Shown piece after piece: positions 587 to 60,986 of a stretch of 64,000 nucleotides of DNA. Origin of the DNA: an uncultured Planctomycetota bacterium (lineage in GTDB: Bacteria > JAJVIF01 > JAPKYR01). The stretch's first letter is position 1, and each line of letters starts with the position of its first letter. The notes beneath the pieces are model-generated. The model made no database searches, was not told where the DNA came from, and saw only the letters and a list, made by a program, of their open reading frames with translations. The DNA lies in assembly GCA_964354375.1 (NCBI GenBank), contig CAYGZQ010000002.1, forward strand, positions 44,866 through 108,865. Direction: 5' to 3'. The position numbers and the translations under genes are program-made.

Positions 587-671
587 TCACCCCACCTCAC
601 CCCCTAACCCCCTCTGTACCTCACCCCCTAACCCCCTCTCCACCCTGTGGAGAGGGGGACTGGGGGTGAGG
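587..671. repeat. GC-rich REP-like palindromic element (half copy 587-620 plus full hairpin 621-671: CTCACCCCCTAACCCCCTCTCCACC / GGAGAGGGGGACTGGGGGTGAGG)
   Basis: Imperfect inverted repeat seen directly. Related copies at 24945-24995 and 42893-42947. This copy is read through by the 3' end of the tgt-fusion ORF. Confidence 0.7.
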
Positions 672-2578
672 ACAAAAAACAGCTCCTCCGCAAACTCGAC
701 CTTCGTTTGACGGAACTCAAGACCATCGGTAATCGACTCAAGCGTGCTCTCGTAGTTCTCTCTCATCCCCTTGTCACGACCACCGAACGACGATGTCGGG
801 AACGAGACAACAATGTGCTTCGAATCGATTCCCTCTATCAACCTTCTGCTGGACCCTTTTTCCTGTTGCTCGAGGGTAGGGACAGTCTTGAGCAGGAACG
901 CGACATCGGCCTGTTCGGACGGCGGCTGCCCGACTACATCCCGGCATTGCGCTTCGCCCTTGATCTTTGCCGGACGGAAAAATCGGTTCAGGAGGTCCAC
1001 GATGCGTCCGTCAATGTCGAGGGCGACATACTCCGCATCTTTGCCCAGCCCCATCCAGGGAATTGCGAACGGCCCGAAGCCGCAGGCGATGTCGATTATG
1101 CGCGATGGTGTCCCGGTGATCTCGAAAAGAGAAGGGAAGATGCGGTCGAGTACGGGCAGACGCTCGGACGTCGACCGATGACCTGCCAGAATCTTCCGGC
1201 ATAACGGCTTGATTCCGTCCGGGTCGGGGTCTTTCTCGAACTCGTCAAGCAAACCCACGGCGTAGTCGTAGCCGAAGGGATCGATGAACGCAGCGTAGAC
1301 CTGGTGCAGTTTCTTCTTCGCGATCTTGACGGCTTCCTTCTCGGTCCGGGATTTCGCGGACGCCCACTGGACCGCCCTCGCGATCGTGTCCTCGCAAAGA
1401 TGCCTGTATTTCCGGCTTCGTTTCAGGGATTCGACTATCGGCTTCGTGTCGATCGCCAGTGAAACAGGCGCAACCTCGCCGAGTCGAGCTTCCCCGGAGC
1501 CGTTCGCGAGCATTCCCATCAGGCGCATGTAGAATCTGAGGTTATGGATGGTCGCGAGCCGGTATGCCAGCGGGTCGTCCACATTGAACAGGTGGTGGAG
1601 GAACGATCTCGAATAGCGGCGGCAGCAGAGGCAATCGCATGATTCGTCCACCGGTTTCCGGTCGTCGGCGTATCGCGAATCCTGGAGGAAGACTCTTGAA
1701 TGGAAGCTCGGGGCATCGAGCCTGAGAGGGTCGGGATTTCCCTGGAAGACGTACAGGCGTTTTCGTCGCGCATCGCGGGTGGGAAATGCCCCGTCGAACA
1801 GGTCGTAGCCCATGCGAACGCAGGAAACGATATGATCCGGACTCGCGATCCCCAGCGCGAACTTCGGGAACCCCTCCGGGATCAACCCTGCGACAAGCTC
1901 GACAGACTCGACCAGTCGGCGATCCTCATCGATCGGCCAGCCGCCGTAGCCGTAGCCGTCGAAACCGATCTCCAGCAGCCTCTCGGCGCATTCGCGCCTG
2001 AGGGACTCATCCTCGCCCCCCTGGATGACCGCAAACAGAAGCGGCCGGGAGTCCTGAAGGCGTTCGCTCGCGGCTATGCGTGCGACGAACTCCGTCTTGC
2101 ATTCGCGGGCCCACAGGATTGTGTTCTCGACACTCTCGCGATGCCTCTCGGGGGGCTCCCCCGGATGCATGCAGTGGTCCAGGCAGATCATCAGGTCCGC
2201 CCCAAGCTGGAACTGCCTCTGTATCGACTTCGCAGGAGTGAGAGTGACTCTCTTCGCGCCTTTCGAGGCGCGATAAGCGAAGCCATCCGGGGTCACTTCG
2301 CCCAGGGCGGGATCCTTTGCGAGGAGCGAGTATATCTGGAACCCGCCGGAGTCCGAAACAATCGGGCGGTTCCATCCCATGAATCCGTGGATTCCGGACG
2401 CGGCCAGGATTCGCACGCCGGGCCTGGTAAGAAGATGGAAGGTGTTGACCACGAGGCCCGTTACGCCGCAGTTTTCGAGGTCGGACGAGTCGACCGACTT
2501 GACGACAGCCCGGGTGGCGTCCGGAAGAAAGGCCGGCAGAGGGAGTGCGCCATGAGGTGTCTTAAGCTCCCTGGACAT
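587..2578 (-). CDS. tgt: Fusion protein: queuine tRNA-ribosyltransferase (Tgt) domain + C-terminal FmrO/Rmt-like class I SAM methyltransferase domain (16S rRNA m7G1405 MTase-like)
   Basis: 663-aa ORF. N-terminal ~400 aa carry Tgt hallmarks (VNTFHL, SDSGGFQ nucleophile region, Zn site CDCLCC...HH). C-terminal ~260 aa carry an HRSTSERL motif and the SAM-binding motif IIDIACGFGP, resembling aminoglycoside-resistance-type 16S rRNA methyltransferases. The last ~25 codons are encoded by the REP-like palindrome. Confidence 0.6.
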   Translation of the reverse strand: MSRELKTPHGALPLPAFLPDATRAVVKSVDSSDLENCGVTGLVVNTFHLLTRPGVRILAASGIHGFMGWNRPIVSDSGGFQIYSLLAKDPALGEVTPDGFAYRASKGAKRVTLTPAKSIQRQFQLGADLMICLDHCMHPGEPPERHRESVENTILWARECKTEFVARIAASERLQDSRPLLFAVIQGGEDESLRRECAERLLEIGFDGYGYGGWPIDEDRRLVESVELVAGLIPEGFPKFALGIASPDHIVSCVRMGYDLFDGAFPTRDARRKRLYVFQGNPDPLRLDAPSFHSRVFLQDSRYADDRKPVDESCDCLCCRRYSRSFLHHLFNVDDPLAYRLATIHNLRFYMRLMGMLANGSGEARLGEVAPVSLAIDTKPIVESLKRSRKYRHLCEDTIARAVQWASAKSRTEKEAVKIAKKKLHQVYAAFIDPFGYDYAVGLLDEFEKDPDPDGIKPLCRKILAGHRSTSERLPVLDRIFPSLFEITGTPSRIIDIACGFGPFAIPWMGLGKDAEYVALDIDGRIVDLLNRFFRPAKIKGEAQCRDVVGQPPSEQADVAFLLKTVPTLEQQEKGSSRRLIEGIDSKHIVVSFPTSSFGGRDKGMRENYESTLESITDGLEFRQTKVEFAEELFFVLTPSPPLHRVERGLGGEVQRGLGGEVG

Positions 2579-13889: not shown

Positions 13890-16724
13890 GTGTATATGCG
13901 AGCTGCGAAGCGGTTTTGGGTCATTTTTCTGCTTCTCATCATGGGTTGCGGCGGACGAGGGGGTATTACACTGCCGAATGCCGGTGAAAATCCCCAACCC
14001 GACCGTCCCGGATCGGCTGCAAGAACGATCTGGGGCATGTGGCATGTGAGCATCGACTCGAACACCCTCGACGCGTCGATTGATCCGATACGCGGGGCGC
14101 AGTTCACGGCCAATGTCACCAGGTTCATGCAGCCGCCGATCAGCCCGATCAATCTCCTCAGCATCACAGTCGACCCGGAGAGCGATCCGCCGAACGGCTA
14201 CTTCGTGCTGTACATCAGCGCCCATCATCCGTTCCCGGGGATTGCCAGGCTGAGCGGGTTCGATGTGAGGGGGATTCTGTTCTCGGACGGATCGATCCAG
14301 GGAATCCACGACCCGGGCGTGCTTCGCGCAGGTCCAGGGGACACTCGGCTGGTGAACGCGGACGGCTACACCCGCTGGTGGAACTGGCCGGAGTTCATGA
14401 CGTACGGGAAGATTTTCGGAGCCACTCAGGGTGCATCCGCTCCAGTATGCCAGCCGACATCCACCGTGAACGGCTACAAGTACTTCGCGGACGGTCTCGA
14501 TTCCGATCAGCCTGTCGCGTCTCTCGATCCCCTGTCCAGAGGATTCTTCAGGACCGTGCCGGGAGTGAACACGCGCCGCTACGAAGTCCGGTTCAAGCAG
14601 GTGGGCGGACAGACGGTTTTCGCTTTCAACTACGCGATCGACGCGAGCTGGTCGCTGCCCGACCCTGCGTATGAGCCGGACTATCCGGTCGAGGCATTCG
14701 ATCTGTCGGCGAACTGCCGGGAAGCGTTCAATGTGTCGGTGGACGACACCGGATCGACCGCTTGGTACGTGGACGAGACGCATAGCGGTGGCGAGTTGGC
14801 GCTCCGGATAGAGGTATTTGACTGGCAAGGCGGAGCAAGCGGAAATGTTCCGGGCGAAGTGTCCGGCATTTTCCTTGAGGGCGGAGTTTTGCCGGGCGAG
14901 TATGATGTTTTAGCGAACGCGGCGATCCTTCCGGGCACAACCGCGAACTCGTCGATTTACGAGGTGGAAATCGCCGATTTGAGCCTGACAAGCTCAGGAC
15001 TATTCGAGCTTTTCGGGACTGTGGAGAGCTCGAACCCCAACACTTACAAACCCCAGGTACCCAATGGGGATGCGTTTGAGTATCCCGCCGCACCGCTAGC
15101 GGCTTACTTCACGTGCAGGGTTTCGGTGCTCGACGCCGCGCCTTTGGAAATCAGCATCACCGGGATCGAGCCGGACGAGGGCGTCCCCGACTGCACTCCG
15201 GAGCATGTGGTGATCACAGGCGATGGTTTCATCGACGGCGCCACAACATTCCGGCTGGAACGCGCAGCCGAGCCGGATATCGCAGCGGAGAATGTCCAAT
15301 GCATCAGCGTGAGCACGATCGAGGGCGATCTTCTTCTCGCCGGAGCTCTTCCGGGACCGTGGGACGCGGTGGTCGAGAATCCCGGGGGAGCAACCGACGC
15401 GCTTGATGACGGTTTCACCGTTTTGCCCGCGATCTATGTCGACGGCGACAACGCCGGTGACCCGCTCATGGACGGCACGCCGGATCATCCGTTCGACACG
15501 ATCCAGAAGGGGGTCGACGCCGCGTACGGGTCGAGCGACGAGCCGGTCATCGTCGATCAGTGCCTGTCGAACTATGCCCCGTTTACGCTCCACGATAACA
15601 GCCATGTCATCGGCTGCAACTGGAACGACGGATCGGGATGGCCCACAGTCACGCAGGAAGACCAATTCACCTACGGACCCAATGTCAATAACGTCACGAT
15701 CGAGGGGCTGTTCTTCGATCTCTACCTTCACACCGGCACGTACGATCCCAATTGGCACTATTATTATTCATACGGTGTGTATTTCGATCAGGGCACCGGC
15801 ATCACAATTACGAGATGCAAGTTCTCGGGATACGGGACGGTGCAGTTCACCTATTTCGTGCATTTCCTCCGCTCGTCCGATGTGGAAATCTCGTACTGCG
15901 AGTTCACGAATCTGTTTCGTCGCGGACCGACCAACGAGGCCCGGATGTTCAGCGTCCTGGATTGTGAGAGCGTAACGGGCCTCCTGTGCCATCATTGCGA
16001 GTTCCACCACATAGGTTACGATCAGGCGGATTCGGGCGAGTACGGCAGCCAGACCGAAGTGATAAGGACCTACGGCTGGGACCCGCATACATCGAACGAG
16101 GACTTTCACAATCTTCTCATCTACGATCTTTTTGACAAGACAAACGCCGTCGGGCAGACTCAGAATTACCTTTCCGCTTTCGGCATTTATCAGCCATCGG
16201 GAGACTATTTCAAGCTCCATAACGTTACGGTCGACGACATACGTCACGCGGACCCCCCGTCCGACACGATCGTGGAGTCGGGACACGTGAACGCAGCATA
16301 TATGGCGCAGGTATGGGCAGAGGTCAGGACATGGAAGAACAACATTGTCTCGAACATCCAGCCCACGGATGAAAGCATGGAGAGCGGGGTCAGCTCGTAT
16401 TATGGCTGGTGGGTCGACAACTACTGCGATCCGCCCCCCTCTCCTCAGCCAATGGACTATTCTCTCTGTTCCAGCCTGGGGAAACCGCTGCCCAACGGAG
16501 CGAATACGTGGCAATGGGATTCGGGATTCATCAACCAGTGCAGCGCGGGTGTTGGGTGCTACCAGAATTCGCAGGATATCGATCCGATGTACGACATGAC
16601 CCCCGGTTCCGGCTTCTACCATCCGACCAATCCGCTGATAGCGTCCGGCGCGGACGATGGGTCCGAGATGGGGGCGTTTGGAGGTCCGGAAGGCGACTGG
16701 ATTCCGCCGAGCCAGTTGGAGTAG
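13890..16724 (+). CDS. Large surface lipoprotein, paralog A: conserved N-terminal domain + C-terminal right-handed beta-helix (PbH1-like) region
   Basis: Lipobox LLIMGC. N-domain motifs HHPFPG..SGFDVRGI, ADGYTRWWNWPEF, NGYKYFADGL, NYAIDASW, FDLSANCREAF are shared with four other ORFs in the window. The C-terminal part has NVTIEGLFFDL / GITITRCKFSG / VEISYCEFTN beta-helix-like repeats. Confidence 0.7.
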   Translation: MYMRAAKRFWVIFLLLIMGCGGRGGITLPNAGENPQPDRPGSAARTIWGMWHVSIDSNTLDASIDPIRGAQFTANVTRFMQPPISPINLLSITVDPESDPPNGYFVLYISAHHPFPGIARLSGFDVRGILFSDGSIQGIHDPGVLRAGPGDTRLVNADGYTRWWNWPEFMTYGKIFGATQGASAPVCQPTSTVNGYKYFADGLDSDQPVASLDPLSRGFFRTVPGVNTRRYEVRFKQVGGQTVFAFNYAIDASWSLPDPAYEPDYPVEAFDLSANCREAFNVSVDDTGSTAWYVDETHSGGELALRIEVFDWQGGASGNVPGEVSGIFLEGGVLPGEYDVLANAAILPGTTANSSIYEVEIADLSLTSSGLFELFGTVESSNPNTYKPQVPNGDAFEYPAAPLAAYFTCRVSVLDAAPLEISITGIEPDEGVPDCTPEHVVITGDGFIDGATTFRLERAAEPDIAAENVQCISVSTIEGDLLLAGALPGPWDAVVENPGGATDALDDGFTVLPAIYVDGDNAGDPLMDGTPDHPFDTIQKGVDAAYGSSDEPVIVDQCLSNYAPFTLHDNSHVIGCNWNDGSGWPTVTQEDQFTYGPNVNNVTIEGLFFDLYLHTGTYDPNWHYYYSYGVYFDQGTGITITRCKFSGYGTVQFTYFVHFLRSSDVEISYCEFTNLFRRGPTNEARMFSVLDCESVTGLLCHHCEFHHIGYDQADSGEYGSQTEVIRTYGWDPHTSNEDFHNLLIYDLFDKTNAVGQTQNYLSAFGIYQPSGDYFKLHNVTVDDIRHADPPSDTIVESGHVNAAYMAQVWAEVRTWKNNIVSNIQPTDESMESGVSSYYGWWVDNYCDPPPSPQPMDYSLCSSLGKPLPNGANTWQWDSGFINQCSAGVGCYQNSQDIDPMYDMTPGSGFYHPTNPLIASGADDGSEMGAFGGPEGDWIPPSQLE

Positions 16725-16841: not shown

Positions 16842-19800
16842 TCAATACAGATCGTAAATCTTGAGACCGATCCGCGTGTGCATTTCGTAAAGGATGCCCT
16901 TGTTGTCAAGAAGTCCGGTGTTGGGGAAACCGGGGCAGGGAGTGGTCACCTCGCCGAAGACCTGCGGATCGTTGGGCGGCCAGAGATTGACCGCGACCGT
17001 CGGGCTGACGTCATCGGCGACGTAGGCATTCTGGCTGTCGATTGCCATGAATTTCATGCTGGGCGCGTACGGAAGCGTGACTGATCCGACAACGCTGGGC
17101 GCATTGCCGGTGCTGATGTCGAGGACCTCGAGGGTATCGCTTGTGAGCATGTACAGGTAGTCGCCGCGCACCTTGAGCTCGTTGATATTATGAGCCATTG
17201 GAAGGCTGTTCACCTGCTGCGGTGCATCAATGTTGCTGAGGCTGAAGACCAGGAGGGTTTGTCCGTTCGAGCCATACATGTAGGAGCCTTTGAGCGCCAA
17301 ATGCCACGCCGGCCAGGGAATCATCACGGGCCCCAGCGCTGTAACCGTCGGGAAAGAGCTGATGTCATAGACATATATCAGCCCATTGAGCAGACTGACG
17401 TAGCAGCGGGCGTCCGTAAGGGCCGGGGAGATGACATCCCCCCCGAGGTTCTCACTATATACGGCAAGCAACTCAGGGATGGCCCCCCCGTCGACGAGGG
17501 CAAAGCTCTGTCCCTGGCTGGATCCGATCGCAAAGACATCACCGAGTACAGCGATAGAATCGAAGTACAACCCCGGGATGGGCCAACTTACTGCGACAAC
17601 CGGGTGAAGGACATCGGTGTTGTCCAGGAAAGTGAGCGCCCCGAAAGAGCCGTCGCTCTGGCAGAAAATGCCGTAGTCTCCTGTGAAGGCACCGCAAATG
17701 GGGGCGTTCACGCATTGGGCGTAGGTCATCAGTATCGGACTCAGCGGTATGCTGAGATCATAGACCGCGAAGCCGCCATGCTCACAAACACACATCAGAA
17801 TATCCCCGTCCGCGTCCAGGGATATCGGGAGGGAAAACGTATCCTCGCTGGTCACCACAGTGGGATTATCAGGACTGGAAAAGTCGACGACCGTGACGCC
17901 TTCGTCACCGTCGGCTGCGTAGCACGTGGTTCCATGGACACAGATGTTCACTCCGTCACCCGGCAAATCGGCATAGCCGTGAGCATTAAGCTGCGTAACC
18001 GGCGAATAGCTCAGGACACTCACTCCGGAGACGGGACCGGGCATCACGTAGCTGTGGACAAGATACCAGCCCGAGACCTCAAGGTCCTTGAATTCAGCTC
18101 CCCCACCGGAATAGGCATTGCCGTTCGGGGTGACATCCAGAGGGTTCTCGACCACGAAAACCCTGAGTTGGGCTGGGAATAACACGGCAAGCGAAGTATG
18201 GGAACCCTCGGGGTCAATGACTTCGAGGTCAATGGGTTTCTCGTCGATCACGAAGTCGCTCACCCAGACGGGAGCCGCGGGATTGACCAGGTAATCGTAG
18301 ATGCTCACGCGCCAGTTGAGGCCCGTCCCTGCGGCTACATACATGTATCGGGAATCCATCGCGATATCCGCCACCCCGCTATTAACCACGAGCGCATCCT
18401 CGGTCAGCTCGGGCGCGGCCGGATCCGTGAAGTCAACCATGTCGATTCCCGCCGGATTCGCGGTGGGGTCCTCCCACGAGTACATGTAGGGATAATCAAA
18501 CGCCGGCTCGGAGCCACATTTGTCGTAGATTCGGGACACAAATACAGCACCGCCATAGTCGGACACGTCGTAAACCCAGTATCCGACCACTCCTGCCAGA
18601 AAGGCGTAGTCGCCATGCTTCTTGACCCAGATTGCGTCACAATCAAGATTCCAGGGCGTGATGTCGACCGGATTGTCGGGAATGGTGTCGACGATGCTGA
18701 AGTCCGATTCCAGAAGGTAGACCATTGCGCCCCCTCCGGAGATAGTGAACTGGTCGACTCTGAGCCTTACGTAGTAAGTGCCGGGACCCAGGTCCAGCGG
18801 ATCAAGCTCGATTTTCAGGATGCCGCCGCCCACGATGGTCGATTTGTCGAGCAGTTGCGCCTGTGAATCGTAGAACTCTATCTTGGCCTTCTGGGCATCT
18901 TGATACCATCGGATTTCTCCTTCCGGTCTGAAGCCGGGGGCGATCTCGAAGAAGTACCAATCCTCGTAATCGACAACGTCGCACAACGTGTCCTCGATCT
19001 GATCGCCGGGCCCGATCGGCTCCGCCTCCGGCATGGAGTTGTTCATGTCGGCGTCGCACGGGGGATCGACAATGTCGACCGTAAGAGCCTGCCAGGATGA
19101 AATCGCCGATGATACTGCCGCTGGGTAGCCGAGGCCCTGGTCGTAGGTCTGGCCGTCGTTGGATTCTGCCCTGACCGCGACCAGGGCAGTTCCCGGCTGC
19201 GACGGAACCGCCTTGCCCGTCAGGTCGACTGAGTACTGCGCCTTGATCGGGGTCTCGCCCACCAGCGTGCCGTCAACCACTCCCGCATAGAGATCGGGGG
19301 CGTACGCGCGCACGAGATTGACCTGTCCGGCGATGTCAGCCGCAGCCTGTCCCTGCCAGTCATGGACATTAGTCGCAAGCCTCAGAACTCCGCCCTTCAT
19401 GCCGGTCTCGCTGTCATAGAATAGCGTGTTGACCGTCGGCACGACGACCACATCGTACGGCTCGGGCTCATTCGCACTCAGCGGGAAATCATCCGGGACA
19501 GCGGAAGGCGGATTCGGACTCGGCGCGGCCCACGATGCATCGACGGCATAACCATAGATAACCTGGGGTCCGGGGTTCATCGGAAATCTGATCAGGTACC
19601 TTCTCGTGTTGCTGCTTCCCGCGGTGAAAACACCGCGTCCGGTGTCGGCATCCATCGCGGTGTTGTGGACAGAGCCCATGCTGTCCGTCGCCTCGAGCGC
19701 GTCGGCGAAATATTTGTACGGGTTCACAGTCGCGGTGAGGCTGCTCGCCGACGAGTTCGTCAGGACCCCCTGCGTGTAGCCGAACATCCCCGACTGAGTG

Positions 19801-20291
19801 AATTCGGTCGGATTCCACCATCGCGTATACCCGTCCGCGTTCTCAAGCCTTGTCTCGTCCCAGTCGGCGAATTTCAGAGAGCCGATATCGAGCGTGCCCG
19901 GCGTCATGAGGATGCCCTTCACGTCGAATCCCGCGAGCTGGGGCTTGGTTCCGAACGGGTGCTTGAGAGTGATGTCAAACGCGAAGAGGCCGTTCGGAGG
20001 ATCGGATTCGCTCGGGACCGCAGCCGCGCTGACTCCCATCGTGGTGTTCAGGATGCCGGTGACATTGAGGTGCAGGTCGGCGGATCGAGCGGGCAGGGCG
20101 GTGATCGACAAGCTGTCTGTATCTACACTGAGCGACCAGAAGCCAAGGCATCGATGTCCTGAGCCCGACTCAGTTGCACGGACCGGGGTGGCTTGTTTGT
20201 CGAAATCAGTGTCGGGAATCGTCGGATTCCCCTGGCAACCCGTCACCACGACCAGAATCGCCGGCAGCAGAGATAAAAGCCGCTTGAGCAT
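16842..20291 (-). CDS. Large surface lipoprotein, paralog B (1149 aa): conserved N-domain + beta-propeller-like C-terminal repeats
   Basis: Lipobox VVVTGC. N-domain motifs KHPFG..AGFDVKGI, ADGYTRWWNPTEF, NPYKYFADAL, GYAVDASWAAP, DFPLSANEPEP. Confidence 0.7.
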   Translation of the reverse strand: MLKRLLSLLPAILVVVTGCQGNPTIPDTDFDKQATPVRATESGSGHRCLGFWSLSVDTDSLSITALPARSADLHLNVTGILNTTMGVSAAAVPSESDPPNGLFAFDITLKHPFGTKPQLAGFDVKGILMTPGTLDIGSLKFADWDETRLENADGYTRWWNPTEFTQSGMFGYTQGVLTNSSASSLTATVNPYKYFADALEATDSMGSVHNTAMDADTGRGVFTAGSSNTRRYLIRFPMNPGPQVIYGYAVDASWAAPSPNPPSAVPDDFPLSANEPEPYDVVVVPTVNTLFYDSETGMKGGVLRLATNVHDWQGQAAADIAGQVNLVRAYAPDLYAGVVDGTLVGETPIKAQYSVDLTGKAVPSQPGTALVAVRAESNDGQTYDQGLGYPAAVSSAISSWQALTVDIVDPPCDADMNNSMPEAEPIGPGDQIEDTLCDVVDYEDWYFFEIAPGFRPEGEIRWYQDAQKAKIEFYDSQAQLLDKSTIVGGGILKIELDPLDLGPGTYYVRLRVDQFTISGGGAMVYLLESDFSIVDTIPDNPVDITPWNLDCDAIWVKKHGDYAFLAGVVGYWVYDVSDYGGAVFVSRIYDKCGSEPAFDYPYMYSWEDPTANPAGIDMVDFTDPAAPELTEDALVVNSGVADIAMDSRYMYVAAGTGLNWRVSIYDYLVNPAAPVWVSDFVIDEKPIDLEVIDPEGSHTSLAVLFPAQLRVFVVENPLDVTPNGNAYSGGGAEFKDLEVSGWYLVHSYVMPGPVSGVSVLSYSPVTQLNAHGYADLPGDGVNICVHGTTCYAADGDEGVTVVDFSSPDNPTVVTSEDTFSLPISLDADGDILMCVCEHGGFAVYDLSIPLSPILMTYAQCVNAPICGAFTGDYGIFCQSDGSFGALTFLDNTDVLHPVVAVSWPIPGLYFDSIAVLGDVFAIGSSQGQSFALVDGGAIPELLAVYSENLGGDVISPALTDARCYVSLLNGLIYVYDISSFPTVTALGPVMIPWPAWHLALKGSYMYGSNGQTLLVFSLSNIDAPQQVNSLPMAHNINELKVRGDYLYMLTSDTLEVLDISTGNAPSVVGSVTLPYAPSMKFMAIDSQNAYVADDVSPTVAVNLWPPNDPQVFGEVTTPCPGFPNTGLLDNKGILYEMHTRIGLKIYDLY

Positions 20292-25979: not shown

Positions 25980-26022
25980 GATTAACGCTGAACGCTGATT
26001 AGAGTATTTGAGGAGGGGCTCC

Positions 26023-28917
26023 ATGTTGGCTCGATACGTTCCAGTCTGCGCGGTGATCACGGCCATTCTGACCGCCGGACTCTCATGCTCAGGACAAAGC
26101 GGTGGACCCGGCCCGACAACACCCGATCTCGTCTCCGGGGCTGCAATCCGGCCTGTCCCGGGTTCGCGCCTGCTGCTGTCGGTCGGACGCATCTCCGTGG
26201 ATATTCCCTCAGGTCGGGCGGAGGTCATCCCGTTCCGCCGAGCGCCGTCACACCTGAATGTCGTGCAATGGCTGGAGAAGAACCCGTGCTCTGACTGTGT
26301 CAGGGTGGCAGACATATCTGTCCACTCGGACGGGACGGTCGATCTCGACATTGCACTCAGACACCCATTTTCTTCCCTCAATTTCACCTGCTTTGATGTC
26401 CGCGGAATATTGATGTTTGGCGGGAGCCTCACGTTTCCGACCGCGGGGTTGAACGCGCCCGACCGCGACCTGGGCGACGGAGAGCTTCTCAATGCCGATG
26501 GGTACACCACTCTCTACAATCCCCTGACCTCCGGCCACGGCATGGAGAGCTATCTCAAGGGAGAGCTTGCGTCCGACCCTCCTCCCTCCTGCATCCTGAA
26601 CGCCTTCAGACGTTTCACGAGCAAGGGCTCCGGAAACCTTCGCAATGCCTTCTACGCCGAGGACGAAGTCACTGTGAGATACACGATCAATCCTCCGGCG
26701 CCTTTTGTCTTCGCCTACGCCGTCGATGCGTGCTGGGCGCCGCCGACCACAAAGCCTGTCGAAGACCCCATGACCGACTTCCCTCCCGAGGCCAATTGCC
26801 CCGAGCCGTGGAGAATCCTGATCAGCGACCTTGGTCCGGGGCTCGACACGGAATACGGCCAGACCAGACTGCAGATCGATGTCTATGACCACCAGGACAG
26901 CGTCAATTCGCCTCCTCGCATTGAGGCCCCCTCGCTGTTCGAAGGCATCGTCACGGCGGACCTCAAGGGCGTATACCAGGGATCAAGACGGTATGAGGCC
27001 GTCATCCAGAACCAGAAAAATGCCTCCCCCGGACAGCACAAGTGTCTCGTTTGCGTGGAATCGGACGAGAACGATCCCGCCGCCAAGCCCTGGCTCAATC
27101 TCACGGCGTACCAGATCGCCTCAGTCACAGTGACGGGGACTCCGATCAATCCGGTCGACATAACTCCGGGAGGGCTTCATGTCGAGCCCGTGGAGGTGGC
27201 GGTTGAAGGCGACACAGCCTTCTTTGCCTGCGGCAATGATGGTTTGCATATCTTCGACATCTCCGATCCCTTGAATCCCGTATGGATAGCGAGGCTTGAA
27301 GGAGCAGTCGACTACGTGACAGTAAGCGGGGGGTATGCTTATTTGACGAGCGAGTTCGGTAGCTGGATGGGAATAGCCGCCATAGATCCGCCCGGCTCGG
27401 CACACTTTGTGTCTGGCATCGAGGCGGGCGGCAACTGCGTCGCGATATCCGGTGATTATGCGTATGTGGGCGGCTACGACGGCCCGTCTATCGTCGACAT
27501 AAGCTCCCCGGAGTCACCGAGCATTGTCAAACAGATCGGACTGCCGTATACAAGCGATGTGGCGGTATCAGGCGGGTACGCATACGCTACGACCAGCGAA
27601 TATGATCAGACTCTGGTCGTGATAGATGTAGACCCGCCCGGCGAGGCCTCGATTGTGAAGAAAGTGAAGCTTGACCATCCCGGCGGTTATGTCGAGGTGA
27701 GCGGCGATTGCGCGTATGTGACTATCGGGAGTAAATGGGGCTCGTCGGCTCTGGGCCTCTACATAGTGGACATAAACCCGCCTTCCGACGCACATGTCAT
27801 CAAGACCTGCGGGACCCTCGGGCAACCTTATTCCCTGATGCTCAGAGATGGGTACGCGTTTCTTTCCACGGAATACGCCGATATCGAGGTGATCGACATA
27901 GACCCGCTCGCGGACGCTCATACTGTTGCGCTTGCCGAGCTTCCTCAGCAGGCCCAAAGCATCGCCTTGCGTGACGACCTTGCCTATCTCGCGGCGGGGG
28001 AGGACGGCATCCTCGTCTGCGACATCGATCCGCTCGAGTCGATCCATGTCGTGTGGAACAGCCTGGTGCTGCACGAGTCTGTCACGATCGCGGTGTCGGA
28101 CGGACATGTCCTCCTCGGAACCCCACCTTATGGACTGCAGATTGTCGACATCGACCCGCCCTACAAGGCAAGGCTCGTCGGGGACATCGAGCTTCCCGAT
28201 GATCCCCGTGACATCGCTGTCTGCGACGGCTACGCGTATCTGGCCGATGGTGGCGGGGATCTGCAGGTTGTGGACATCGACCCACCCGACTCAGCGTGCG
28301 TAGTTGGCTTTCTCCCCGTAGAAGGTTCCGTTAACAGAGTCGCAGTATCCGGAAGTACTCTTTGCAGCCTCTCGTACGCGGGAGGGGCGAGTTCGCTGCG
28401 CGTTCTGCGACTAGGGCCATCAGGTTCCGTCTCGCCGGTCTCAGTAATAGCTCTTCCACAAGGCGCGGATTCGCTGGTGGTTGCCGGTGGTTACACCTAT
28501 TGCTCGGGTGGCTGGCCCTGCAGTCTTCAGATCATCGACATCGACCCACCCGAATCGGCGGCTATCGTGTCGACCCTGGATGTATATGCCCGCATTTGCG
28601 CTGTCTCAGGCGGTTACGCCTACCTCGCGGCAGATTCAGATGATGTCTTGGTTGTCGACGTGACTTCCCCCCAGTCGCCTGCACTCGCCGAGACTATTTC
28701 TCTCCCGGAATCATGCCGGGACATTCGAGTCTCCGGCGGCTATGCCTACGCGCTTGGAGATACGAATCTGTACGTGATCGATATCGATCCTCTCGATTCC
28801 GCATCGGTGATCGCCTCTTGCCCGGTGGCGGACTACTCAGCCGCAGGGTTGGAGATTTCCGGGAGATACGCCTACATCGGCGGCAGCGCGGGTCTGCAGA
28901 TCATCAGGCTCTGGTGA
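26023..28917 (+). CDS. Large surface lipoprotein, paralog C: conserved N-domain + LVIVD beta-propeller repeats
   Basis: Lipobox TAGLSC. N-domain motifs RHPFSS..CFDVRGI, NADGYTTLYNP, AYAVDACWAPP, DFPPEANCPEP. The C-terminal half has GYAY...IVDIDPPxSA repeats. Confidence 0.7.
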   Translation: MLARYVPVCAVITAILTAGLSCSGQSGGPGPTTPDLVSGAAIRPVPGSRLLLSVGRISVDIPSGRAEVIPFRRAPSHLNVVQWLEKNPCSDCVRVADISVHSDGTVDLDIALRHPFSSLNFTCFDVRGILMFGGSLTFPTAGLNAPDRDLGDGELLNADGYTTLYNPLTSGHGMESYLKGELASDPPPSCILNAFRRFTSKGSGNLRNAFYAEDEVTVRYTINPPAPFVFAYAVDACWAPPTTKPVEDPMTDFPPEANCPEPWRILISDLGPGLDTEYGQTRLQIDVYDHQDSVNSPPRIEAPSLFEGIVTADLKGVYQGSRRYEAVIQNQKNASPGQHKCLVCVESDENDPAAKPWLNLTAYQIASVTVTGTPINPVDITPGGLHVEPVEVAVEGDTAFFACGNDGLHIFDISDPLNPVWIARLEGAVDYVTVSGGYAYLTSEFGSWMGIAAIDPPGSAHFVSGIEAGGNCVAISGDYAYVGGYDGPSIVDISSPESPSIVKQIGLPYTSDVAVSGGYAYATTSEYDQTLVVIDVDPPGEASIVKKVKLDHPGGYVEVSGDCAYVTIGSKWGSSALGLYIVDINPPSDAHVIKTCGTLGQPYSLMLRDGYAFLSTEYADIEVIDIDPLADAHTVALAELPQQAQSIALRDDLAYLAAGEDGILVCDIDPLESIHVVWNSLVLHESVTIAVSDGHVLLGTPPYGLQIVDIDPPYKARLVGDIELPDDPRDIAVCDGYAYLADGGGDLQVVDIDPPDSACVVGFLPVEGSVNRVAVSGSTLCSLSYAGGASSLRVLRLGPSGSVSPVSVIALPQGADSLVVAGGYTYCSGGWPCSLQIIDIDPPESAAIVSTLDVYARICAVSGGYAYLAADSDDVLVVDVTSPQSPALAETISLPESCRDIRVSGGYAYALGDTNLYVIDIDPLDSASVIASCPVADYSAAGLEISGRYAYIGGSAGLQIIRLW

Positions 28918-53587: not shown

Positions 53588-53670
53588 TCAATAGTCCGCC
53601 CGGATTCGTGCGTAGAAGGGCTGCGGCGGGAACGGATAACCTCTCCAGAAGGCGATGGTGCTCGTGTCGC
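53588..53670. repeat. 83-bp direct repeat copy A (duplicate of the 3' end of lipoprotein gene D, 1 mismatch)
   Basis: Identical except one C/T to 55206-55288. Encodes ...TIAFWRGYPFPPQPFYARIRADY-stop on the minus strand. Confidence 0.8.
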
Positions 53671-55205: not shown

Positions 55206-55288
55206 GTCAATAGTCCGCCCGGATTCGTGCGTAGAAGGGCTGCGGCGGGAACGGATAACCTCTCCAGAAGGCGATGGTGCTTGTGTCG
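55206..55288. repeat. 83-bp direct repeat copy B (native 3' end of lipoprotein gene D)
   Basis: See copy A. Confidence 0.8.
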
Positions 55289-57864
55289 CTGTCCCAGCAG
55301 GGATCGGTGATTCCGGCAAACGAGCACCAGGTTCCCTGATAGGGGGTGTTGTCGTTGACAGATCCCATTTCGATCAGGTTGCCGTTGCGATCGATCAGAG
55401 CGACATCGGTTCTCCAGCCTGATGTCGCGGCATCGTGCCAAAAATCGATATATGCGTTGCCGTCGGGGTCGCATGCGATGCCGGTGACATTCTCGGACTG
55501 TGAGCCGGGAATGATCTTTCCCTGCCATGAGCCCGAGCGATTGTTGGTGTATGCGGCCTGGGTCATTGTGACGCACCAGGCGACATGGACCGTCCCGAGG
55601 TAATCCACCGCCACTGCGGCGAAGTTCGGATATCCCGACACGCCCGAAGATGCCACTTCGATGGAGCCCCATGTGCCGGACGCATTGCGTTTCATGTACA
55701 TGATGGTGGATGCGCCGGGACCGGTCCAGACGAGATGAAGGTTGCCGAACCGGTCGGCGACCATGTCGGGACGCATGTGGTAGATGTCGGGGTTGACCTG
55801 GGTTGTGAGATCGACCGGCGCAGACAGACTCCCCGGCTGTCCATGAACATAGACCAGCTTGTAGTTGCCGCTGTACGAGGGCATGACGATGTGGATCTCG
55901 TCGTCGGGAGTGACGGCGATCGTCGATTCTCCTTCATACCCGGACGGGGAAGTGAAGGTATGAATCGTGGTGAAGTTCTGGACGGCATTGCCCGGCGTGA
56001 CCATTGCGTAGTAGTAGGCGTGCGACGTGCTGTAATAGCTCGTCCATACGATGTGCGCGTTGCCCTGCGAATCCGGGGCGACATCGGCGACCTCACCGTA
56101 CGCATACGAGCCGAGACTCACCTCCTGGAAGCTGGTGGGATTGGTCATGGAGGACCGTACGAACCTCGTGGGAAGGGCGTAGACCAGGTAGATCGTCCCG
56201 TCCGGTGTGACGAACGAGTTGACGAAATTGGAGGCCCCGACATTTCCCATCTGTCCGTCGGGATTTTCGAGGTCGGTGAAACCCTTCGGCGCGACGTAGA
56301 CCGGGGTAGCGGACGTCATCGCGGACGCATTGGACTCGGTCGCGTCGATATCGACAGCCTTGACCACATAATCGTATGTCGTGCCGGTCATGAGAACGGC
56401 GGTGTCGATGTAGTCGGTATCGGTGAGTATCGTGGGGTTGAGGGGGTCCAGAAAGTCGAAACCGGGAGCGGTCGAGAGTTTCCGGTAGACGTTGTAACCG
56501 GCGAGCGTGGGCCAGTCGACGGGATCCCAGAAGAGATGGACCACTCCGGCAGCGGCGCAGTTATCGAGGCCGGTGGGCGTGGGGATCGAAACGGGCTCCT
56601 CGGTGAGGATCGGCGCGTCCCAGAACAGGAAAGCCGCAAGAGGCTCCTCGGGATAATCGAAGCCCGAGATGCCCTCGAGATTCGGCGCATAATCGGAGGG
56701 GGACTCGGACTCGACCGCGACCATCAGAGTCTGACCGGTCAGGCCGGATGGAGTAACGTCCGCGATCTCCACATGGAACACCGATGAAGTCGGGCCGTCC
56801 GGAGACACGACGGCTGCGGGCAGAACATCTATCGGCGTATCGAAGAGATCAGGGGACTCGACCCATATCGCGGCGACTTCCCCCGGAACCCCGAGCGGAT
56901 TTTCCACAGCCTGCCAGTCGTAGACGGTAATGTCGAGGACAAGATCGCCGCCGTTCTCGGTCGGCGAGACATACCATGCGTCGGAGCCGGCATCGGCGAC
57001 GGCCAGCATGTACGCTTCCTGGCAATTCGCGCTGAGAGAATAGTCCTCGGGGAGATAGACCGGGCCGTCGCCTGTCGGCGCGTCCCAGCTCGCATCGACC
57101 GCGTAATTGAATTCCACCACCGGCGAGCCCGCGTCCATCGGGAAATGAATCATGTAGCGCCGCTCGTTGAAGCCAGGGGATGTGGCGAAAAATCCCCGGG
57201 TGGCGGGATCGATCACAAGCTCGTCCTCGCTTTCAAGATCGTCCGCGAAATACTTGTAGGGGTTCAGCGTCGCCGTCGCCGTGAAACCGGGAGAGGCCAG
57301 CGCCCCCTGAGTGTATCCGAAGATCGTATTGTATGTCGTGAATTCGGTGGGATTCCACCAGCGCGTCCAACCGTCGGAGTTCAGGAGCCTCGCTTCATCG
57401 CCTGCAGCGTAAAGGAGATTGCTGTAATGGTCGCTCAGGACGCTGCCGTCCGACATGAAAATCCCCCTCACGTCGAAGCCGGAATACATCGATATCCCCG
57501 GAAACGGATGATGGAGCATGACGTCGACCGCGAAGAGGCCCTCAGGGATGTCGCTTGCGAACGGGTCGATCGACACGGTGATGCGGTTGATCGGCGAGAT
57601 CGGCTTCTGCATGAACATGGTCACGTTCGCGTTGAACTCGGCCGTTCTGGACGGTTCAACCGTCACCTCGAGCGTACGTGTGTCGATGCCGATTTCGTAG
57701 ACGCCCCACACGACGCGAGAGCTGCCCAAGCAGGATGCCCGGTGACCGCTGAGGTCGGGCGCCGCCGTTGGACCGAGAACTGAATCACCTGCGGTCGAGC
57801 AACCGACGATCATCGACACGAGCAGAATAATCCCCAGCCAAATAATGTTTACACGGGTGTTCAT
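55207..57864 (-). CDS. Large surface lipoprotein, paralog D (885 aa): conserved N-domain + beta-propeller/YVTN-like C-terminal region
   Basis: Lipobox MIVGC. N-domain motifs LHHPFPG..SGFDVRGI, SDGWTRWWNPTEF, NPYKYFADDL, NYAVDASWDAP, YSLSANCQEAY. Confidence 0.7.
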   Translation of the reverse strand: MNTRVNIIWLGIILLVSMIVGCSTAGDSVLGPTAAPDLSGHRASCLGSSRVVWGVYEIGIDTRTLEVTVEPSRTAEFNANVTMFMQKPISPINRITVSIDPFASDIPEGLFAVDVMLHHPFPGISMYSGFDVRGIFMSDGSVLSDHYSNLLYAAGDEARLLNSDGWTRWWNPTEFTTYNTIFGYTQGALASPGFTATATLNPYKYFADDLESEDELVIDPATRGFFATSPGFNERRYMIHFPMDAGSPVVEFNYAVDASWDAPTGDGPVYLPEDYSLSANCQEAYMLAVADAGSDAWYVSPTENGGDLVLDITVYDWQAVENPLGVPGEVAAIWVESPDLFDTPIDVLPAAVVSPDGPTSSVFHVEIADVTPSGLTGQTLMVAVESESPSDYAPNLEGISGFDYPEEPLAAFLFWDAPILTEEPVSIPTPTGLDNCAAAGVVHLFWDPVDWPTLAGYNVYRKLSTAPGFDFLDPLNPTILTDTDYIDTAVLMTGTTYDYVVKAVDIDATESNASAMTSATPVYVAPKGFTDLENPDGQMGNVGASNFVNSFVTPDGTIYLVYALPTRFVRSSMTNPTSFQEVSLGSYAYGEVADVAPDSQGNAHIVWTSYYSTSHAYYYAMVTPGNAVQNFTTIHTFTSPSGYEGESTIAVTPDDEIHIVMPSYSGNYKLVYVHGQPGSLSAPVDLTTQVNPDIYHMRPDMVADRFGNLHLVWTGPGASTIMYMKRNASGTWGSIEVASSGVSGYPNFAAVAVDYLGTVHVAWCVTMTQAAYTNNRSGSWQGKIIPGSQSENVTGIACDPDGNAYIDFWHDAATSGWRTDVALIDRNGNLIEMGSVNDNTPYQGTWCSFAGITDPCWDSDTSTIAFWRGYPFPPQPFYARIRADY

Positions 57865-58138
57865 TTCGTGACCTCTCTCGTTTGTCTGTTACTGAATCAC
57901 GAGGTTCTGCCGGGAGTAATGATACCACAGTATGGCAAGGCGCCGCACGCTAAGGAGGCACCGGTCCCCGCCGGTGCACGAGTTCAGTAAGCGCATACTT
58001 ACACCATTCTGGGATTCGCAGAAATCATTTTTTTGGTATTCCAGTCAGGGCATGGTAAAATGAGATCGGTGCCGGGTCGGTTAAGAGTGCGTCCTCTTTT
58101 CCCGACGACCCTCCACAGAGACGCAGGGAGGAACGGCA

Positions 58139-59715
58139 GTGTTCTACAAATTAACCTTCAGTTTCAGGGGGGGGGCAGGTATGCGCCTGCATGCCTGACA
58201 CCAGCAGTAGTCCTTGCACTTATCATTTTGAGCGGATGTAATGGGGGAGGAAGTCCTATCAGCGGAGATAATCCGGCAAGCCTTCAAAGGACAGCGCAGG
58301 CATTCGCAGGGGGAGAAGAATGGGGGGAAGCCTACAAAATGGATTCCGCATCGTCGATCTGGGCTCATCCGGTACCGGACGGAATCACACCGGGCGATAT
58401 CGCCGTGTCGGATCCGGGGCTCGGCGATGTCTCCACACTCGCAACTGCTTTCGTAAAGCATGGAAGCTCGGGAGCGCCGTCCGAGATCGACCTGATCGTT
58501 TTTGACGAGGGCGGGGAGTTCCCGCGGTACTTGGATACTTTCAGCGCGCCCGAGCTGATGACAGGCTATCATGACCCGCTGTGCCGCTATCCGGCGGTGG
58601 AAGTGACTTACTCGCGCAACGAAGGCGTGAACGCGGGGATATTGGTGGTCGAAGTCATCTGGTCGCAACTCACGAACCTAGAGGCTCCTCACTGGGACCT
58701 GTATTACCACCAGGTATCTTTCAGGGTCTTCGCTGATGGTATCTGGTGGTTCCTCCCGATGGAGAGTCCGATTGTCCAGATTGAGTCGACAGCTTCGGGT
58801 TTCGACGAATTCCAGCCGGATCTGTCCGTGCATGCGGAAAGCGGCGACCTGTATGCCGTGTTCAACCGCAGAGACCCGACCGACCCGACGCTGGACAAAA
58901 TCTATGCCGTCCGTCATCCCGATTGGGGCCAGGTGATGAAATGGTCGCCGCTTTGGGCCATGCCGTACAAGATATGCGGCTCCGATGCGAGACCCAGGTC
59001 GGCGCCGAAAGTCGACGCCGGGCCTGTCGAGTTGGATGAGGGCATACCGGTGCCGCGGGTTGCGGCGACCTGGTCGGAGCTCTACGATGAGCATACCTGG
59101 CAGGTATGGTACAACGACTGGGATCCGGGGAATCCCGGCACCCCGTCGCAGACGGCAGAGCCGGTAACTCAGTACGCCATGTACCGGGTGAACGCTCTTC
59201 CGCAGATTGACATCACACCGGATTCCTCGGGGATACATCAGGCCGTGATAGCCTGGTTCCATTGCCGATGGGTCTTGACCCCGGAGCCCGCTCACTATGA
59301 CGAGTTCGCAGTCTGGATGACTGCAACGCCGGATATTGACGACTTCACAGCGATCCCGGAAACGAGCATCTGCCCGGATGTGGCGTGCTATCAGATGTCC
59401 GACCCGGACGAGCACTGGTTCGGGCTCAGCTATTATCTTCCTGCGGGGGAGGAGCCGTGGCTGGTGCGCGCTCATCGATTCACTTTCTCCGTGGACTGGG
59501 AGACCGAGAGCGTGACTATCACTCCTGTGTTCTCGACTGACGTGCTGGGCTCGAATGGCCGCTGGAACCTTGATAACCCCTTCACAGGTTCGACATTGAA
59601 CCTGAGGATCCCCGATGACGATGACCTCGAATCGTCAAACTTTGGGATCGGCTGGGTTGACAAGGAAGACGGCGATGAGTTCATGGCCTACCTTTCGGCA
59701 GGGACCATCGACTGA
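58139..59715 (+). CDS. Surface lipoprotein F (not a member of the A-E family); translation from the RBS-linked GTG start depends on the length of a G9 tract
   Basis: GGGAGGA RBS at 58125-58131 followed by GTG 58139. With the observed G9 run (58167-58175) this frame stops at 58196. With G10 it reads VFYKLTFSFRGGGRYAPACLTPAVVLALIILSGC (lipoprotein signal) into the long ORF. The track ORF starts at TTG 58033 without an RBS. Confidence 0.5.
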
Positions 59716-59732
59716 CTCAGGGAGGTCTAACC

Positions 59733-60986
59733 ATGAAAGCAACCGCGCTTTGTCTTGTTGTGGTAGCGCTCCTCGTCGAGGCGCTGTCATGCGCGACGGG
59801 GGATCGTCCGACCGCTCCTGGTTTGCATCCAGTTCCGCAGGCAGGCGGTGAGCCGTGCTGCGACCAAGCCGGTGGCCGGTATCTGGACTGGGGAACGTAC
59901 AATATCGAGATCGCCAGTGACGCCTCATACGTTCGCGTCGTCCCTGAGCGCAGCGCATCCGGTAAGTACGGAATTCATCTGAATGCTACAAAGCTTCTGG
60001 AAGCAGGGCCCTGCTACGACTGTCTGTCAACCAGCAACCTCTATCTGCTACCCAACGGGGATATCTCAATCGATATCTCGATAACCCATCCATATAGTGA
60101 TGCACGTTACAGTGGTTTCGATGTAAGGGGGATCATTATGTTCCCCGCGAGCCAGGACTTCCCCGATGTCGAGCTTCGAAAAGCAGCCGGATGGGATGAC
60201 AACTATGGGGGTTATGTCATCAGGATAGCCAGCAGTGAAAAGGGCGATGCGGAGTTGATGAACCCGGACGGCTGGACTACGATTTGGTCGCCAGATGTTG
60301 AGGAACTCTGGCATTCGTGGGATCAGATTGAGGAGGGAGACTATCCTATCCTCAAGTACTATCCCGGTAAGTACGCCTCAGGCGATAACCTCAGTGTTAT
60401 CAGTCCGTTCAGACGGTTTCACTCAAACGAGATCCGTCACATGTTCGAAGTGGGGAAGACCGTTACGCGCACGTATATCCTGCGGCCACCGGCATCTGGA
60501 CCGATAAAGGCATCTTATGCGATTTGCGCCCACTGGGCGCCGGCCACTAATGTTCCCGTCAGCGACCCTGCGGTCGATTTCCCGCCGGAAGCGAATTCGC
60601 CGACGCCTTACGAGTTCACGATCACACAGGACGCGCCGATAGATCCGGACGATATTTCCTGGGAATCGGCGAAACATCTTCACTACCACATCAAGGCATG
60701 GTACAGCGACTTGTCGTCATGGGTAGGTACTCTTTTGGACATAGGGTGCATCTCGAATCCGGGTGGAGAGTTCGAACCATATCCCGGAGGAGAGCCAGAC
60801 GAGTACTATTTCGCTGGATTCACAGCTCTTCCCTGGGAGAACATCCCGGGATGCTTGCCGGCAGATTGCCTCTATGTCTTTCGACTCGAGATGCGTGATC
60901 CGGAGCATGTCTGGGGCACAGGAAAGCCTCTCGGCACTGATTTCTATATCTTCAAGATCGCAATAGAAGCCTCGGACGGGGAGTAA
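59733..60986 (+). CDS. Surface lipoprotein, paralog E (417 aa): conserved N-domain only
   Basis: Lipobox EALSC. Motifs THPYSD..SGFDVRGI, NPDGWTTIW, YAICAHWAPA, DFPPEANSPTP. GGGAGG RBS; 18 bp after the preceding gene. Confidence 0.65.
   Translation: MKATALCLVVVALLVEALSCATGDRPTAPGLHPVPQAGGEPCCDQAGGRYLDWGTYNIEIASDASYVRVVPERSASGKYGIHLNATKLLEAGPCYDCLSTSNLYLLPNGDISIDISITHPYSDARYSGFDVRGIIMFPASQDFPDVELRKAAGWDDNYGGYVIRIASSEKGDAELMNPDGWTTIWSPDVEELWHSWDQIEEGDYPILKYYPGKYASGDNLSVISPFRRFHSNEIRHMFEVGKTVTRTYILRPPASGPIKASYAICAHWAPATNVPVSDPAVDFPPEANSPTPYEFTITQDAPIDPDDISWESAKHLHYHIKAWYSDLSSWVGTLLDIGCISNPGGEFEPYPGGEPDEYYFAGFTALPWENIPGCLPADCLYVFRLEMRDPEHVWGTGKPLGTDFYIFKIAIEASDGE

Follow-up and report, generated by a model that had tools for sequence, protein, structure and literature searches.

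How can a lipoprotein gene be expressed when its Shine-Dalgarno-linked start codon lies in another reading frame than the protein itself? This question is raised by a locus in a 64,000-nucleotide (nt) stretch of DNA from an uncultured Planctomycetota bacterium (contig CAYGZQ010000002.1), hereafter referred to as the window. On the forward (+) strand of this window, a strong Shine-Dalgarno (SD) sequence and a GTG codon precede a run of nine G, beyond which the open reading frame (ORF) of a β-propeller protein continues in a different frame. We propose that the G run is probably a hypermutable simple-sequence repeat by which the translation of a candidate surface lipoprotein is switched ON and OFF (phase variation). 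The comparative data presented below favour this explanation, rather than an error of assembly or a pseudogene.

Anatomy of the start region

The SD sequence GGGAGGA (58126-58132) is located 6 nt 5' of the GTG codon (58139-58141), which was assigned as the start of the preprolipoprotein from the sequence reading and the family comparison. The poly-G tract comprises exactly nine G (G9; 58167-58175). As sequenced, the GTG frame encodes a 19-codon peptide, MFYKLTFSFRGGAGMRLHA, closed by a TGA stop at 58196-58198. One additional G (or the loss of two, or the gain of four) joins the GTG frame to MFYKLTFSFRGGGRYAPACLTPAVVLALIILSGC, continuing as NGGG, in a frame open to the end of the ORF at 59715. 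By this frame arithmetic G9 is an OFF length, and G7, G10 or G13 would be ON. The tract thus stands between the SD-linked start and the hydrophobic h-region of a signal peptide, at a place where G9 leads to a stop and G10 to the full preprolipoprotein.

The G10 reading has the features of a bacterial lipoprotein (a substrate of Lgt and LspA), for which we looked for a basic n-region, a hydrophobic h-region and a lipobox of the form [LVI][ASTVI][GAS]C with its cysteine within about 15-35 residues of the start. It comprises the n-region MFYKLTFSFRGGGR (with K4, R10 and R14), the h-region LTPAVVLALIIL and the lipobox LSGC with Cys34, and it passes the PROSITE PS51257-type lipoprotein test, lipidation being a prediction. 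In the long-ORF frame, the remaining part of the signal peptide, RYAPACLTPAVVLALIILSGC, occupies 58177-58239 (+), with the lipobox L-S-G-C at 58228-58239 and the cysteine codon at 58237-58239. The mature lipoprotein follows at 58240-59715 (+; stop codon 59713-59715); in it, about 20 disordered residues link the cysteine to the β-propeller.

These observations, made by direct reading and by script, bear out what a first-pass annotation had described, namely the GTG at 58139, the nine-G run, the stop at 58196 and the joining, by a tenth G, of this start to a lipoprotein signal peptide continuous with the long ORF. Its SD sequence was also correct, with coordinates (58125-58131) that were one base off.

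The G9 tract is the longest homopolymer of the window, and it has the length (poly-G/C of at least 9) that PhasomeIt takes as its cut-off for candidate phase variability (PMC5953494). A base-composition model predicts about one run of at least nine G in 64 kb, so that the statistics of the window alone cannot rule out a chance occurrence; by the same model, long G runs are depleted in the window (two runs of at least seven G observed vs 10.6 expected).

Could the protein be produced as sequenced, from a start codon located further upstream? The open frame that contains the β-propeller ORF spans 58033-59715 (1.68 kb), is open back to 57991 and offers two in-frame candidates, TTG 58033 and ATG 58060, the ATG being in frame also in the related locus L001. 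Between ATG 58060 and TTG 58228, a codon that sits three codons 5' of that of the lipobox cysteine, this frame has no ATG, GTG or TTG. Expression from one of the two upstream codons, with a 60-residue leader, would make the GTG codon and the G9 tract irrelevant. We regard it as extremely improbable in view of the following lines of evidence. First, neither codon has an SD sequence, as the first-pass annotation had stated, and this point is strengthened by their overlap with a predicted σ70-type promoter (58033-58061, +). This promoter is made of a -35 element TTGGTA (58033-58038), a 17-nt spacer and an extended -10 element TGgTAAAAT (58053-58061; hexamer 58056-58061), and it is the only promoter-like site in 57800-58300 (9/12 matches, TG present; shuffled sequences average 0.4). 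TTG 58033 forms the first half of the -35 hexamer, and part of ATG 58060 lies in the -10 hexamer; as both codons fall inside the predicted promoter, they would lie 5' of the transcript. Second, the lipobox cysteine counted from ATG 58060 is at position 60, outside the 15-35 range. Third, the upstream codons are not conserved, whereas the SD-linked start is; 5' of the tract, the long-ORF frame of L003 and L012 is interrupted by a stop and offers no start codon, so that the SD-linked codon is the only possible start in these two lineages.

The promoter assignment is a consensus match with moderate support. The extended -10 element, TGgTA[A/G]AAT, is kept at -86 to -88 in all four cassettes of the window's type (window, L001, L003 and L012; hereafter type A). 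Strict σ70 scans of L003, L012, L014 and L010 found no full promoter, so that the promoter argument draws on the window site and the type-A extended -10 element only.

The tract in related lineages

The DNA of relatives was fetched by exact-protein look-ups and pattern scans, and the region from promoter to lipobox was analysed at each locus. Seventeen related lineages share the layout of the window: a strong SD sequence, an ATG or GTG codon, about nine basic n-region codons, a pure G run, an h-region and a lipobox. Because the same tract occurs at the homologous position in these 17 lineages, a chance origin is ruled out. In 17 of the 18 loci checked, a GGAGG or GGGAG motif precedes the start codon by 12-14 nt; AAGGAGG takes its place in L032. 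Among the type-A relatives the start codon is ATG in L001 and L003, and GTG in L012, and no other start is common to all type-A alleles.

The signal peptides of the tract-bearing lineages belong to at least nine unrelated-looking sequence types, and the G run is kept in every one of them. Examples are MF.K.TFSFRGGGRYAPACL..., MFRK.....GGGNALTAF..., M..SVKALHGGGSICKYLL..., MSGRFNNAFGGGYASGS..., MSNKTKSTAVQRGGGRYVAL... and MSIEAGIHPNAGGGGGRKPRL... The pure run is thus maintained at the DNA level, in a family where GGG represents 21% of the glycine codons of the mature regions (3% in L017 and 7% in L010). Furthermore, in 188.5 kb of non-redundant sequence (window plus loci) all 15 G/C runs of at least 9 are found at the 5' end of genes of this lipoprotein family, and only two G/C8 runs occur elsewhere. 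Since all of these runs stand at one site and GGG is a minor glycine codon, neither chance nor codon usage explains the tract.

The length of the tract varies over the 18 alleles (G8, G9, G10, G11, G12 or G15). Eleven alleles are OFF, with G9 in the window (and L006), L026, L024 and L019/L028; G11 in L001, L003/L004/L005/L009, L012 and L034/L035; G12 in L010; and G8 in L027 and L030. L030 was scored OFF by its SD-linked start, an in-frame ATG devoid of SD sitting 15 nt 5' of that start. The seven ON alleles are L014 and L032 (G10), L015, L016, L017 and L020 (G9), and L033 (G15). The OFF share (61%) is near the 2/3 expected for a tract drifting freely among frames.

Two variants of the layout were also encountered. 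In L013 the tract is interrupted (TCG GGG CGG; GGGCGGGGA) and in frame, and L013 is, as judged from its sequence, a locked-ON variant. In L031 an in-frame G9 run (1640-1648) occurs after the lipobox cysteine (GC-SGGG-H) and not before the h-region, and a slippery tract may thus have been acquired at a second position within the lipoprotein family.

Reproducibility of tract lengths

The most direct case of length variation is provided by L014 (JGI 3300031952) and L026 (ENA ERZ27247977), two loci from different assemblies with 99.85% identity over 5,868 nt. Eight single-nucleotide polymorphisms and one indel separate them, and this indel is the tract itself, G10 (ON) in L014 and G9 (OFF) in L026, the rest of the lipoprotein gene being identical. 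Repeat number thus varies between close genomes, with both ON and OFF represented.

Several points weigh against a phase-variation switch. Tract-length variation is documented at the level of assemblies and lineages, whereas a switch would act within a population. All four type-A alleles (window, L001, L003 and L012) are OFF, and G11 and nearly the same cassette recur in three of them, a sign that these OFF states may not represent independent events. ATG 58060 is excluded on the strength of a promoter assigned by consensus match only. At the last base of the tract (position 5837), the two assemblies L001 and L002, made from a single sample, disagree (G11 vs G10 followed by C). Finally, the contig names of L027, L028 and L033 indicate a low coverage (2.4-4.6x), at which a homopolymer miscall is possible.

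The last two points also speak for a homopolymer sequencing or assembly error, under which the true tract of the window would be G10 and the gene constitutively expressed. Poly-G runs are error-prone, and the L011 contig breaks off right at the tract (positions 1-21), with unrelated sequence 5' of it. This contig end and the L001/L002 mismatch are signs of assembly ambiguity or of read heterogeneity at the tract. Against such an error, the same length was obtained from independent assemblers or samples for five lineages: the window and the Logan contig of ERR3804373 are both G9; L003, L005 and L009 are all G11, as is L004, a strain with 99.3% identity that comes from another assembly; L019 and L028 are both G9; L034 and L035 are both G11; and so are L011 and L012. 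Errors would also need to have hit 11 of the 18 alleles, and in both directions, the frame correction required being +1 nt for G9 alleles, and -1 nt for G11 and G12 alleles. No other frame breaks are evident in the window, where the housekeeping proteins AlaS (2-846 of 847) and RecN (1-561 of 563) match their models end to end. Lastly, an error leaves unexplained why a pure G run is kept against codon usage. We therefore consider it quite unlikely that the frame break is an artefact.

The first-pass annotation had left the choice between a phase-variation switch and a homopolymer error. The former is supported by the conservation of the pure tract, the length differences, the proportion of out-of-frame alleles (about 61%) and the selection described below, while the latter is disfavoured as the main explanation by the reproducible lengths and the frame errors in both directions.

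Selection on the OFF alleles

The genes of the four type-A OFF lineages (window, L001, L003 and L012) are intact ORFs of 507-523 codons, and their mature regions have pairwise ratios of nonsynonymous to synonymous substitution rates (dN/dS) of 0.18-0.26, at dS values of 0.45-2.4. These values indicate that the OFF alleles are under purifying selection, i.e., that the gene is kept functional although its SD-linked start is out of frame. In addition, the SD-linked frame is the only frame common to the four type-A alleles 5' of the tract; K4 and R10 are kept, and the differences in this frame include synonymous ones (AAA/AAG, TTA/CTG and AGG/CGG).

These data bear on the possibility that a dispensable gene was irreversibly knocked out at a mutational hotspot and is now decaying. 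Indeed, neither the window nor any of its three closest relatives has the gene in frame. A decaying gene, however, is hard to reconcile with the low dN/dS between OFF lineages, with the lack of internal stops in more than 500 codons and with the conservation of the SD sequence, the start codon and the signal peptide. Moreover, sister lineages carry ON alleles, and the tract is the only difference between the L014 and L026 genes. Pseudogenisation appears very unlikely on these grounds.

Purifying selection on four out-of-frame alleles would also fit a constitutive, low-level rescue at the RNA level, in which RNA polymerase slips on the G run, or ribosomes shift frame on GGG GGG G, and the length of the DNA tract tunes expression. 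Runs of at least nine identical bases can give transcriptional slippage in bacteria, the best documented cases being A/T runs. As the correction required differs in sign between the alleles, and seven of them need none, the alleles do not share a programmed shift. Neither a stimulatory structure 3' of the tract nor an Rfam element was found; in particular, nothing in 57850-58350 matched Rfam at E ≤ 1. For the same reasons (a correction of +1, -1 or none depending on the allele, and no known RNA element), a programmed ribosomal frameshift site was considered and rejected. RNA-level rescue is in our opinion unlikely as the explanation of the locus, and RNA-level slippage could coexist with DNA slippage, or contribute beside it.

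A possible shared 5' cassette on divergent proteins

The 66 nt that extend from the tract to the lipobox (58177-58242 in the window) were compared among the window, L001, L003 and L012, and among L017, L020 and L010. Between lineages, the identity is 86-98% in this segment and 49-84% in the mature regions (92-98% and 51-83%, respectively, in the comparison made for the signal-peptide part of the window gene); for instance, the window and L012 share 92% identity in the segment vs 51% in the mature region, and L017 and L020 share 88% vs 50%. This pattern suggests that divergent mature domains carry a 5' cassette that is conserved or homogenised, through concerted evolution or exchange among family members.

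The 5' untranslated region (5'UTR) also carries a motif that emerged from the family comparison. This motif, (G)GTGCCG(G/C), represented by GTGCCG at 58069-58074 (+) in the window, precedes the start by 35-72 nt in 13 of 16 family loci (window, L001, L003, L012-L015, L024, L027, L028, L030, L034 and L010), as compared with 3.9% of background 100-nt windows. It is frequently close to the apex of a local hairpin, and it may be the site of a regulator or of an RNA-binding protein. RNAalifold applied to 12 of these 5'UTRs, which align poorly, returned no consensus structure.

Proposed mechanism of the switch

We propose that the phase-variation switch operates as follows. Transcription would start a few bases 3' of the -10 element (58056-58061), and ribosomes would load at the strong SD sequence and initiate at GTG 58139, as its conservation indicates. 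In the OFF state (G9), they would produce the peptide MFYKLTFSFRGGAGMRLHA and terminate at TGA 58196. No exported lipoprotein would be made in this state, because the β-propeller ORF has no usable start 5' of the signal peptide. Slipped-strand mispairing during replication would add G's to the tract or remove them from it. In the ON state (G10, G7 or G13), the GTG start would be fused to the n-region, the h-region and the lipobox LSGC, and the exported product, with a lipid attached at Cys34, would be displayed on the cell envelope. If slippage is reversible, a population would always hold both ON and OFF cells, and selection would shift their proportions, for example when the protein serves a phage or a predator as receptor, or when a nutrient or adhesion need arises.

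The lipoprotein and its family

Scans of the protein against Pfam and NCBIfam gave no match. A search of 5.8 billion proteins returned 19 relatives. When 1.84 billion cluster representatives were searched exhaustively with a profile, 83 passed E ≤ 1e-3 and 35 passed E ≤ 1e-30. With only these 35 clusters among so many representatives, the lipoprotein family is rare. Its full-length members carry the lipobox (...GC[NS]G...), and all members come from environmental metagenomes. L025, a distant member lacking the tract, belongs to a metagenome-assembled genome whose CSMAG name matches a cold-seep catalogue of such genomes (PMC10491686). L025 is labelled Planctomycetota, and the 1.4-kb contig of L024 is labelled Woesearchaeota, probably through mis-binning; neither label is a dependable guide for the window.

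The AlphaFold model built on the family alignment is a confident all-β propeller with a predicted local distance difference test (pLDDT) of 84.8 and a predicted template-modelling (TM) score of 0.87. Residues 1-41 of the query, comprising what remains of the signal peptide plus about 20 mature linker residues, have a pLDDT below 50. The nearest structures found with Foldseek are sialidase-like and GH43/PL24-like propellers (TM scores of 0.3-0.5, about 10% identity). The model assigns the mature domain to the β-propeller fold class, and to nothing narrower. Membership of the sialidase/GH33 group was rejected in view of these low TM scores and identities and of the lack of a Pfam or NCBIfam match, the fold class alone being shared.

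The public annotation of the window gene (P0001, 458 amino acids) begins at an internal ATG (58339; MDSASS) and has no signal peptide. Its closest relatives, P0002 (80% identity) and P0003 (72%), are likewise annotated from an internal methionine. P0001-P0004, P0007, P0008, P0011, P0014, P0015, P0018 and P0020 are all called from an internal methionine or from the lipobox, and even the in-frame alleles of L017, L031 and L032 are called at internal methionines. As these last three are called internally despite their in-frame upstream starts, gene-caller starts were dropped as a sign of frame disruption. As a consequence of such truncations, the public entries are devoid of signal peptides, and the proteins are mis-localised there.

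The partner gene and other features of the window

The lipoprotein gene is followed by a partner gene (59720-60986, +; 417 amino acids) that has its own SD sequence (GGGAGG, 59720-59725) and starts at ATG 59733. The gap between the two genes is 9-18 nt in every locus recovered intact there, with the exception of L027, in which a 53-nt gap precedes a truncated partner homologue. The lipoprotein and partner genes probably form an operon, and we speculate that the OFF state lowers the expression of the partner through polarity. The partner has homologues in more than 100 clusters, none of them named. Its model is a β-sandwich (pLDDT 76.8), for which a comparison with the PDB gave no informative match (TM ≤ 0.2).

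The possibility that the lipoprotein is a paralogue of its neighbours was rejected: it is unrelated to the 885- and 417-amino-acid proteins, which are related to each other. A domain of about 300 amino acids, N-terminal and making up the bulk of the 417-amino-acid partner, is common to five ORFs of the window (59733-60986; 55207-57864, minus strand; 13890-16724; 16842-20291, minus strand; and 26008-28917). Two of the large ORFs with this domain also bear LVIVD β-propeller repeats. The occurrence of these ORFs points to a second, expanded family of secreted proteins or lipoproteins. The last 26 codons of the 885-amino-acid lipoprotein gene (55207-57864, minus strand) are repeated exactly at 53591-53668 (minus strand), forming a 78-nt direct repeat on the same strand, about 1.6 kb away.

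At the other end of the window, a 663-amino-acid ORF (587-2578, minus strand) is an unusual fusion of a tRNA-guanine transglycosylase (Tgt, residues 5-360) with an aminoglycoside-resistance-type methyltransferase, an Rmt-family 16S rRNA G1405 N7-methyltransferase domain (residues 381-637). The latter domain scores 226 bits, just below the 250-bit cut-off.

Comparison with known systems

The closest documented analogue of the window tract is hpuAB of Neisseria meningitidis. The hpuA gene has a poly-G tract in its ORF that is ON at 7, 10 and 13 G, and isolates are mixed ON and OFF (PMC3786947). Similarly to the window locus, hpuA is a lipoprotein gene with an intragenic poly-G tract and the 7/10/13 ON periodicity, and it heads a two-gene operon (PMC3786947). 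Substitutions within its tract give "effective length" variants that resemble L002 and L013 (PMC3786947). The two systems differ in that HpuA is a component of a haemoglobin receptor in an obligate human commensal and pathogen, whose switching was measured, whereas the window protein is an unrelated β-propeller from uncultivated environmental bacteria, for which switching is proposed from sequence comparison. A further difference is that the tract of the window type is conserved over a whole divergent gene family.

The contingency genes of Campylobacter jejuni and Helicobacter pylori and the Neisseria phasome also have intragenic G/C runs of at least 9 in surface-structure genes, and these were detected, like ours, through tract length and frame comparison among genomes (PMC5953494). 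These host-associated bacteria harbour tens of such tracts per genome, whereas in the 64-kb window and about 125 kb of related flanks the runs of at least 9 occur in one family only, and the setting is not host-associated. A pilus gene of Bifidobacterium breve is reported to have an intragenic G-tract with ON/OFF switching by replication slippage, likewise affecting a surface structure and shown by deep sequencing (PMC9187656). B. breve is a gut commensal with sortase-dependent pili, and its switch was verified experimentally. In Treponema pallidum, variable poly-G tracts are reported to modulate the expression of candidate outer-membrane proteins of the tpr family (PMC7864442). The tpr tracts are 5' of the ORFs and act mainly at the promoter and transcription level, whereas the window tract is intragenic and would act via the reading frame.

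A different kind of parallel concerns the architecture of the family. The Vlp, Vsa and Vpma types of Mycoplasma are families of phase-variable lipoproteins that combine a conserved 5' region and signal peptide with divergent mature regions. The window family, too, joins a conserved tract-to-lipobox segment to divergent mature regions. The Mycoplasma families, unlike the window family, switch via promoter poly-A tracts or site-specific inversion, and not via poly-G within the region encoding the signal peptide. The lipoprotein family is represented by one copy in the window.

It is conceivable, albeit doubtful, that the family is a multigene family of variable surface β-propeller lipoproteins in a sediment-dwelling bacterial lineage, with a shared 5' cassette exchanged by gene conversion. 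This cassette would comprise the extended -10 element, the GTGCCG motif of the 5'UTR, the SD sequence, the start codon, the poly-G tract and the signal peptide. If so, each copy would switch independently, thereby generating a combinatorial population surface. This would amount to a pathogen-style variation of antigens or receptors in a free-living environmental bacterium, presumably directed against phages or grazers.

Biological significance

Phase variation by homopolymer slippage is, to our knowledge, known almost entirely from host-adapted pathogens and commensals. The locus that we describe most likely represents this known device, poly-G phase variation, in an unusual setting, namely uncultivated environmental bacteria in which the tract is conserved family-wide. 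The distribution of tract lengths among reads may be usable as a marker of the ON/OFF dynamics of populations in situ. More generally, the family-wide occurrence of the tract in environmental bacteria points to stochastic surface switching as a strategy that may also operate outside hosts.

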